Shown piece by piece: positions 698 to 765 of a DNA stretch of 22,956 bases. The position numbers were made by a program, and so were the translations under genes. Position 1 is the first letter of the stretch; every line of letters begins with the position of its first letter. The notes beneath the pieces were generated by a model. It worked only from the letters and a program-made list of their open reading frames with translations. It made no database searches and was not told where the DNA came from. This DNA is from a virus (taxonomy: Duplodnaviria > Heunggongvirae > Uroviricota > Caudoviricetes), in the IMG/VR virus record IMGVR_UViG_3300045988_018328; one strand, given 5' to 3'.

Positions 698-765
698 TAT
701 TACCTGAAAAACCACATATGGATAGGAAGGCTGTAAATATGAATAGATATTACCTTTCAGGTAAT
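698..765. promoter_or_regulatory. Shared regulatory module, copy A: ATTACC-N6-ACCACATATG (699-720) plus palindrome TTACC-TTTCA-GGTAA (750-764), in the divergent region between the tailspike gene and the LexA-controlled ORF
   Basis: Same elements in the same order recur at 18868-18945. The 17-mer TATTACCTTTCAGGTAA is identical at 748-764 and 18929-18945. Confidence 0.6.

Follow-up and report, generated by a model that had tools for sequence, protein, structure and literature searches.

A predicted repressor operator and a promoter core without a -35 box upstream of the tailspike and portal genes of a phiV10/epsilon15-like phage

The module situated upstream of both the tailspike gene and the portal/head cluster in the DNA described here is probably a repressor-gated late promoter, composed, as far as its sequence allows a judgement, of two independent cis elements, an operator and a promoter core. 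An earlier sequence-only reading had regarded the palindrome in this module as a dedicated late-promoter/activator site serving two separate late transcription units. That reading was right in part: the sequence points to distinct late promoters built on one plan, yet the palindrome is most likely a repressor operator. The scheme presented below amounts to a testable map of late-gene silencing and release in prophages of the phiV10/epsilon15/SPC32H type, and it would bring the head, tailspike and lysis operons within the known Rep/Ant/LexA switch. Such prophages are frequent in E. coli, Salmonella and Klebsiella; phiV10 itself serves as a reporter phage. The elements would be of help in making these phages express reporters or payloads, and in predicting how readily a prophage is induced. 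The principle is not a new one, repressor operators beside activator-dependent late promoters being known from P1.

The two-block module and its conservation

DNA searches were performed with the two module-bearing regions of the window (the whole stretch analysed, 22,956 nt, IMG/VR record IMGVR_UViG_3300045988_018328). Identities of 95-99.8% were obtained with phiV10, phiv142-3, ZX5 and other E. coli phages, and of 66-80% with epsilon15, SPN1S/SPC32H, Tyrion and Klebsiella phages. Judged by these matches, the window derives from a phiV10/epsilon15-like podovirus of the genus Uetakevirus. The repressor gene lies outside it. The gene layout is as follows.

21.8-19.7 kb, minus strand: terS and terL
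18.84-16.9 kb, minus strand: gp3 and portal genes
18634..18840, minus strand: gp3 homologue (68 aa, phrog_831; ATG at 18840-18838), first gene of the portal/head cluster
16940-18619, minus strand: portal gene
down to 3.0 kb, minus strand: head and tail genes
841-2997, plus strand: block of genes between the tailspike gene and the structural operon
1..645, minus strand: N-terminal part of the tailspike gene (ATG at 645-643), which runs off the window; annotated as tailspike/tail fiber in relatives

One segment of the structural region stands apart. Window positions 3023-10099, which encode proteins of 273, 1129 and 915 aa, gave no blastn match in phiv142-3, and the flanks are 96-98% identical; the genes at this place also differ in size between phiV10 and phiv142-3. 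The segment has the appearance of a mosaic exchange, in which genes for internal virion or ejection proteins were replaced.

Both sequences that make up the module were found where the earlier reading had placed them, on the minus strand upstream of tailspike and gp3/portal. The succession of TTACCTGAAAGGTAAT and CATATGTGGT-N6-GGTAAT is confined to two minus-strand places in the window, 699-764 and 18868-18945. The first block, TTACCTGAAAGGTAAT, lies at 764-749 and 18945-18930 on that strand and has no other exact copy in the window (0.15 expected by chance, even with up to three mismatches). The second lies at 720-699 and 18889-18868, and these are the sole matches when up to three mismatches are allowed (0.16 expected). 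The elements concerned are listed here.

750..764, no strand assigned: op-A, operator palindrome TTACCTGAAAGGTAA, in the divergent ant/tailspike intergenic region, at approximately -57 from the inferred ant start
18931..18945, no strand assigned: op-B, operator palindrome TTACCTGAAAGGTAA, at approximately -79 from the inferred gp3/portal promoter
699..720, minus strand: second block of the tailspike module, CATATGTGGTTTTTCAGGTAAT, a TATRTGGTT element with a GGTAAT operator half-site
18868..18889, minus strand: second block of the gp3/portal module, CATATGTGGTTAAATTGGTAAT, a TATRTGGTT element with a GGTAAT half-site

The palindrome ends 104 nt before the tailspike ATG and 90 nt before that of gp3; the upstream placing had been given correctly, and the distances, put at 105 and 91, are each to be corrected by 1 nt. 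The two blocks are separated by 28 nt at site A (tailspike) and by 40 nt at site B (gp3/portal), and the gap sequences are unrelated. What the two regions have in common is therefore a set of shared motifs and not a duplicated segment of about 70 bp. The palindrome spacer TGAAA, identical at both window sites, is a lineage-specific feature, as the two spacers differ in epsilon15, Tyrion and BUCT711.

The presence of the module in relatives, which the earlier reading had put forward as a test, was borne out by alignment. It was found in phages of E. coli, Salmonella, Enterobacter and Klebsiella, and also in prophages of at least 10 further enterobacterial species. Among 77 distinct gp3 upstream regions, a sample anchored on the gene, the exact operator and GGTAATWAT were present in all 77 and TATRTGGTT in 70. 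A set of 96 distinct tailspike modules, collected by means of the motif itself, has most of its conservation in a LexA box, the operator, TATRTGGTT, the -10 hexamer and the ribosome-binding site. Upstream of both genes, the sequence between the blocks is poorly conserved.

The tailspike genes of this group are mosaic, and the region upstream is more conserved than the tailspike body. This pattern would suit a recombination joint for tailspike swapping, and the similarity of the two sites might on such a view, or as the product of chance or of a recent local duplication, have no regulatory role whatever. That explanation is very improbable. Chance expectations amount to only 0.01-0.16, the unrelated sequence between the blocks rules out duplication, and the confinement of conservation to the motifs contradicts the absence of a role. 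Moreover, the same two motifs precede portal, tailspike and lysis genes across four host genera.

The palindrome as a predicted repressor operator

Exact copies of TTACC-N5-GGTAA are present at five places in the window (750, 1130, 2175, 18931 and 21747), compared with an expectation of 0.01. Two of them, op-A and op-B, stand some 67-80 bp before the inferred promoters of tailspike and gp3/portal. The other three abut the -10 hexamers of sigma70-like promoters, at terS, at the promoter of a Bro-N antirepressor-like gene and at a small ORF beginning at 2203.

1102-1130, plus strand: sigma70-like promoter TTGTAA-17-TATATT, which drives an isrK-like RNA, a C4 RNA and the Bro-N antirepressor-like gene
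1130..1144, no strand assigned: operator copy abutting the -10 hexamer of that promoter
2175..2189, no strand assigned: operator copy with TACTAT in front of it and a small hydrophobic ORF downstream
21747..21761, no strand assigned: terS operator copy, whose epsilon15 counterpart (12-27) is annotated 'repressor'

The small ORF (2203-2451, plus strand, 82 aa) is strongly hydrophobic and has no family match. Upstream of terS (window 21726-21790, minus strand) there follow, in order, a terminator-like hairpin, the extended -10 sequence TGGTACTAT, the operator and, about 18 nt further on, the likely start codon. From this arrangement, the packaging genes appear to be under a repressor-controlled promoter of their own, of an early rather than a late type.

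The same motif was located in each of five related genomes, in 8-11 exact copies at conserved gene-flanking positions. The phage phiv142-3, which is near-identical to the window, has 10: pairs spaced by 62 bp are found at OL and at Pnin (before the nin-like genes), further operator sites lie between rep and the cro-like gene (OR), and the rest correspond to the window positions. Clustering at OL, OR and Pnin was observed in phiv142-3, phiV10, epsilon15, SPN1S, Tyrion, BUCT711 and 13 prophages; it is a feature seen in relatives only, rep being outside the window. In these relatives the repressor gene has TTACC-N5-GGTAA on its flanks in groups of two or three, and three operator-like sites are grouped around PR at OR. 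The operator begins directly after the -10 hexamer at PL (TTGACA-16-TAATTA) and Pnin (TTGATT-17-TTTAAT) of the relatives, and also at terS (TGnTACTAT) and at the window promoter 1102-1130. A position immediately after the -10 hexamer is classic for an operator.

The palindrome is already a known and annotated feature of epsilon15 (AY150271.2; Kropinski et al. 2007), in which it occupies orthologous positions, with further copies beside the repressor gene and at terS. The record annotates seven ATTACC-N5-GGTAAT sites as protein_bind 'repressor', an annotation that may be purely bioinformatic. These sites include the orthologue of op-B (2931-2947, before gp3/portal) and that of op-A (19895-19911, before the tailspike gene), and four further exact copies of the palindrome have no annotation. 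Only the palindrome is marked in that record, which annotates neither the TATRTGGTT/-10 core nor a link to the lysis promoter.

The protein that would bind these sites is Rep, whose family comprises epsilon15 gp38, phiV10 p40 and SPC32H Rep. Rep of the relatives matches PDB 5D50, the SPC32H repressor (E 4e-42), and has two HTH domains; it is described as a tetramer on DNA, with a tetramerisation domain of the looping type. The presumed recognition helix, NL(V/I)(N/S)RW, is almost invariant in proteins that are overall only 41-78% identical, which fits an invariant operator. Both the operator motif and this helix are shared by all of the enterobacterial relatives found, and a Rep-Cro-p42 cassette is present in every operator-bearing prophage long enough to include the region. 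Relatives more distant than these have neither the motif nor the helix; at 45-59% terL identity, other palindromes are present around the immunity region and none precedes the portal gene. In the relative ZX5, holin and endolysin transcripts fall by more than 99.9% when Rep is overexpressed (PMC9782041). The palindrome is thus predicted to be, most likely, the operator of the prophage master repressor of the SPC32H Rep family.

A role as an intrinsic terminator or RNA hairpin did not find support: the stem is of 5 bp and A+T-rich, no T run follows, and the terminator scan did not report it. A one-mismatch operator, TTACCYTAAAGGTAT, was also noted in the attP region, approximately 45-60 bp upstream of the integrase gene, and is conserved in four genomes.

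epsilon15, 26882: one-mismatch operator TTACCYTAAAGGTAT
phiV10, 26870: the same
SPN1S, 26986: the same
Tyrion, 28568: the same

The second block and its possible readers

An alignment of six genomes revealed one core upstream of gp3/portal, the tailspike gene and the lysis cassette. It consists of (C/T)CATAT(A/G)(T/A)GGTT, approximately 7 nt, and then TAATAA, TAATAG or TAT(A/G)AT; the perfect TATAAT hexamer of the phiV10 lysis promoter fixes the register. On this alignment, the second block is a conserved promoter core, made up of TATRTGGTT, about 7 nt and a putative TAATAN -10 hexamer, with no -35 box. The candidate hexamers in the window are the following.

694..702, minus strand: candidate tailspike -10 hexamers TAATAG (702-697) and TAGAAT (699-694), aligned with TATAAT/TATGAT of the lysis promoter of relatives
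18865..18871, minus strand: candidate gp3 -10 hexamer, TAATAA (18871-18866) or AATAAT (18870-18865), with TG at -15/-14

These assignments are without the conserved T at -7. When a canonical sigma70 promoter was defined by at least 9 of 12 matches over the -35 and -10 hexamers and a spacer of 16-18 nt, none was found at 694-765 or in 18600-19700; -10-like hexamers only were observed.

In the more divergent prophages of Rahnella and Pantoea, TATATGGTT and GGTAATTAT are both kept and the distance between them changes from 5 nt to 4 or 7 nt; they are therefore separate elements. The distance from GGTT to GGTAAT varies from 4 to 7 nt, and the lysis promoter of relatives retains TATRTGGTT in the absence of the GGTAAT half-site. 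The TATRTGGTT element extends to an ACC-N6-GGT palindrome, AACCATATATGGTT, of which only the right half is conserved in the portal promoter. The element is also found at approximately -41 of the window promoter 1102-1130 and, in some genomes, in the PL and Pnin spacers. Late-specific information, if there is any, is in this block (TATRTGGTT and the -10 hexamer) and not in the palindrome. TATRTGGTT probably defines the late class of promoters, and it is the part that merits experiment.

To describe the geometry, the aligned hexamer was taken as -12 to -7, so that all of the promoter positions given here are inferred ones. In this register TATRTGGTT is centred at approximately -24. The operator would be centred at approximately -79 for the portal promoter, -67 for tailspike (op-A being at about -67/-70 from its inferred start) and for the Rahnella portal, -70 for lysis and -81 for the Pantoea portal, values that fall into two sets separated by roughly one turn of the helix. 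From the GGTAA of op-B to that of the second block the distance is 62 bp, the same as in the OL and Pnin operator pairs; at the tailspike site it is 50 bp. In other prophages the spacing of true operator pairs is 61-63 or 73-76 bp, and in the Rahnella variant the portal spacing is 12 bp shorter, with the phase kept. This 12-bp series suggests phase-dependent bridging by a tetrameric repressor. The lysis promoter is without the half-site, and bridging is therefore not the whole story; this absence, together with the variable distance from GGTT to GGTAAT, weakens the idea of looping to a half-site. A position of the operator outside the core promoter, as at the late promoters, is unusual for simple repression, and at approximately -67 to -81 the palindrome may have an added activating role.

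A late-activator site, as in the earlier reading, is one rival account. On that account the palindrome would be bound by a dedicated protein, or by a Cro-like protein using the Rep operators, and would act in a class I-like manner on promoters that have no -35 box. The inferred positions of about -67/-70 or -79/-81, one helical turn apart, are what dependence on the face of the helix would lead one to expect, and among the early proteins of phiV10 neither a Q antiterminator nor a late activator of known type could be recognised. The earlier claim of a dedicated late-promoter/activator site is nevertheless at odds with the distribution of the motif. The identical sequence abuts the -10 hexamers of strong sigma70-like promoters and flanks the repressor gene, as would be expected of a repressor operator, and its epsilon15 orthologues are annotated as repressor sites. 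The terS copy, only about 18 nt before the start codon, would be unable to activate there, and the 3-bp difference between -67 and -70 misfits a strict activator geometry. An activator site in place of an operator is, on these grounds, quite unlikely. The wider claim, of a promoter architecture shared by two late units, is upheld as regards the common core, which extends to the lysis genes of relatives, and falls as regards a late-specific palindrome.

A further account dispenses with any separate late factor. The TATRTGGTT element may, alternatively, be a secondary Rep site; the promoters would then be weak sigma70 promoters, bridged by the Rep tetramer and constitutive once Rep is gone. The GGTAAT half-site overlaps the portal and tailspike -10 hexamers, as does the right half of O3 at the PR of epsilon15, and AACCATATATGGTT (ACC-N6-GGT) resembles the ACC-N5-GGT of the operator. 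The 62-bp portal spacing shared with OL and Pnin, the two HTH domains and tetramerisation of Rep, and the co-occurrence of the two motifs at most regulated promoters are also in keeping with it. It is unlikely all the same, as OR, the main Rep switch, is without a TATRTGGTT-like element, the lysis promoter has TATRTGGTT and no GGTAAT, and the portal promoter conserves only the right half of the putative second palindrome. In addition, promoters without a -35 box, and mostly without an extended -10, would be expected to be very weak unaided.

Possible readers of TATRTGGTT were sought among the phage proteins. PHROG scans of the phiV10 early proteins revealed no Q-like or late-activator family. 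The protein at p42 of phiV10, in the position of cII, has 66 aa, is Cys/His-rich with a conserved C-x2-GH...C-x2-C pattern, and belongs to phrog_1081; a Pfam search at E values up to 1 gave nothing informative. Upstream of its gene (phiV10 33100-33410, and homologues) are an operator-like site, the palindrome AACCAAATATGGTT and the sequence TTGATC-17-CAAAAT, and a TATRTGGTT element is situated at approximately -41 of this putative promoter, beside the operator-like site. From these features p42 is a candidate for an autoregulated activator, and nothing more than a candidate. The Cro-like protein is an unlikely reader, the element being absent from OR in 13 genomes. Sites for CRP, DnaA, PhoP, CpxR, sigma54 and IHF, compared by eye as consensus sequences, do not fit.

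A protein encoded just upstream of terS was also considered.

22034-22372, minus strand: 112-aa protein, phrog_536

Its PHROG label is that of a transcriptional regulator. The N-terminus is basic and the C-terminus rich in Cys (CGKCGE...CPCNGDSQC), and searches of Pfam, NCBIfam and PDB gave no match. Among 710 relatives, the 120 listed are mostly 75-99% identical, and relatives also occur in lambdoid phages, ZF40, N15 and Vibrio phages. It was rejected as the late activator because close homologues are found in Q-encoding phages that lack both motifs: that of the lambdoid phage Chlobot is 87% identical and that of ZF40 66%, and both genomes encode Q.

Late transcription units, the SOS input and known systems

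That the late genes form separate units, and not one read-through operon, had been proposed from the sequence and is confirmed by the gene arrangement, with opposite-strand genes and terminators between units that each have a conserved promoter-like module. The tailspike gene is parted from the structural operon by approximately 2.4 kb of oppositely oriented genes and by terminators. The gene upstream of it is the divergent ant homologue, the plus-strand genes beyond end in terminators, and a minus-strand terminator (3003-3020) follows the structural operon. The portal cluster is preceded by an opposite-strand tRNA-Arg and by terminators. Given these orientations and terminators, each cluster needs its own promoter. 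In all, the late units number at least four (terS-terL, the genes from gp3 to the tail, tailspike, and lysis), each preceded by a repressor operator.

A hairpin is predicted in the tailspike leader.

655..691, minus strand: tailspike leader hairpin, -20.9 kcal/mol, z -4.2

It begins just downstream of the inferred tailspike -10 hexamer, a position that fits a predicted transcript start near 687-690, and within it the first two G of GGAG, the ribosome-binding site (656-653), are base-paired. The epsilon15 tailspike leader has an equivalent fold of different sequence. In an alignment of 16 sequences only the apical GCGC stem was supported, without covariation. Stabilisation of the mRNA or translational control are possible roles for the modelled structure.

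The intergenic region that holds the tailspike promoter also contains a LexA box, and the genes beyond it form a second antirepressor module.

804..819, no strand assigned: LexA box CTGTATATTTATACAG, near-consensus, overlapping the inferred ant promoter
841-1098, plus strand: ant homologue, 85 aa, small antirepressor of the SPC32H type, phrog_450
1102-2109, plus strand: second antirepressor module, like P1 immI
1181-1256, plus strand: isrK-family sRNA, 77.9 bits
1281-1366, plus strand: C4 antisense RNA, 77.7 bits
1414-2109, plus strand: Bro-N antirepressor-like gene

The LexA box is kept in seven of eight tailspike upstream regions. By homology, the LexA box and ant are the putative SOS input of the switch, in an intergenic region held in common with the tailspike promoter. 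The Ant/LexA system of SPC32H was reportedly set out by Kim and Ryu in 2013. The SPC32H Rep/Ant/LexA switch (PDB 5D50, 5D4Z) belongs to the same genus, and the window has both the ant homologue and the LexA box, divergent from the tailspike gene. According to papers that cite it, the published SPC32H work (Kim & Ryu 2013; Kim et al. 2016) concerns the Rep-Ant interaction, and the mechanism of gene repression is said in one of them to have 'not been extensively characterized' (PMC9986798). A literature search, outside which the primary epsilon15 and SPC32H papers lay, yielded no paper on late regulation in Uetakevirus.

The repressor-gated promoter favoured here would operate as follows. In the lysogen, Rep would sit on the distal operator, and the tetramer would probably also reach the GGTAAT half-site over the -10 hexamer, so that a loop is formed and the promoter silenced. 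Upon SOS induction, LexA would leave the ant promoter, Ant would strip Rep from the DNA and the late promoters would be released. Because they have no -35 box, these promoters would probably also need a phage factor that reads TATRTGGTT. A bolder extension is possible, if doubtful: the Uetakeviruses would need neither a classical late activator nor a classical antiterminator at any stage of the lytic programme. A looping tetrameric Rep would gate all of the units (early, packaging, head, tailspike, lysis and second antirepressor) through its 8-11 operators, and the three late promoters without a -35 box would be switched on through TATRTGGTT/AACCATATATGGTT, read by an uncharacterised phage protein for which p42 is the best candidate.

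Among known systems, P1 offers several points of likeness. It has a master repressor, C1, with many operators dispersed over the genome; its late promoters have no -35 box and are made up of a -10 hexamer preceded, at a distance of about 4 nt, by a conserved element; and beside at least one late-promoter pair, LP26/LPpmgL, lies a C1 operator, O26. In the P1 immI region (c4-icd-ant), a C4 RNA and antirepressor operon is under a repressor operator, and window positions 1102-2109 are arranged likewise. The sequences, in contrast, are unrelated to those of the window, the P1 late element being AAxTGACTA and the C1 operator the asymmetric ATTGCTCTAATAAATTT, and the window element stands about 7 nt from the -10 hexamer as against 4 nt in P1. 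When the P1 '-22' element (AA(A/G)TGACT(A/T), 9 bp, 4 nt from the -10) was compared, using LPsit, LP23, LP26 and LPhot, no similarity was seen. Nor, judged by family descriptions, was a PHROG family of the Lpa type of activator present among the phiV10 early proteins. As the sequences are unrelated, the resemblance to P1 is, by analogy, one of how the system would work and not of family membership.

With lambda and P22 the window phage has in common its character as a temperate enterobacterial phage, and its relatives a CI/Cro-like divergent switch and a tripartite OR. A single late operon dependent on Q, as in lambda, was rejected, since there is no Q-like family among the phiV10 early proteins and the run of late genes is broken by terminators and by genes on the opposite strand. 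Silencing through many sites in both early and late regions is said to have been described by Brown et al. in 1997 for mycobacteriophage L5, in which the 'stoperators' of gp71 reportedly direct whole-genome silencing. The spread of prophage repressor sites through early and late regions is the point of likeness. The L5 sites differ in being asymmetric, far more numerous and orientation-dependent, and in acting on elongation within units, whereas those of the window type are palindromic, number 8-11 per genome and lie at or upstream of promoters.

The tRNA gene that precedes the portal cluster, tRNA-Arg(tct), occupies window positions 19268-19344 on the strand opposite to the late genes. Approximately 245 bp around it (window 19027-19344) are 83% identical to lambdoid, cdtI and Stx2c phages, and an 83-aa ORF that overlaps it on the other strand (19274-19525) is probably spurious.
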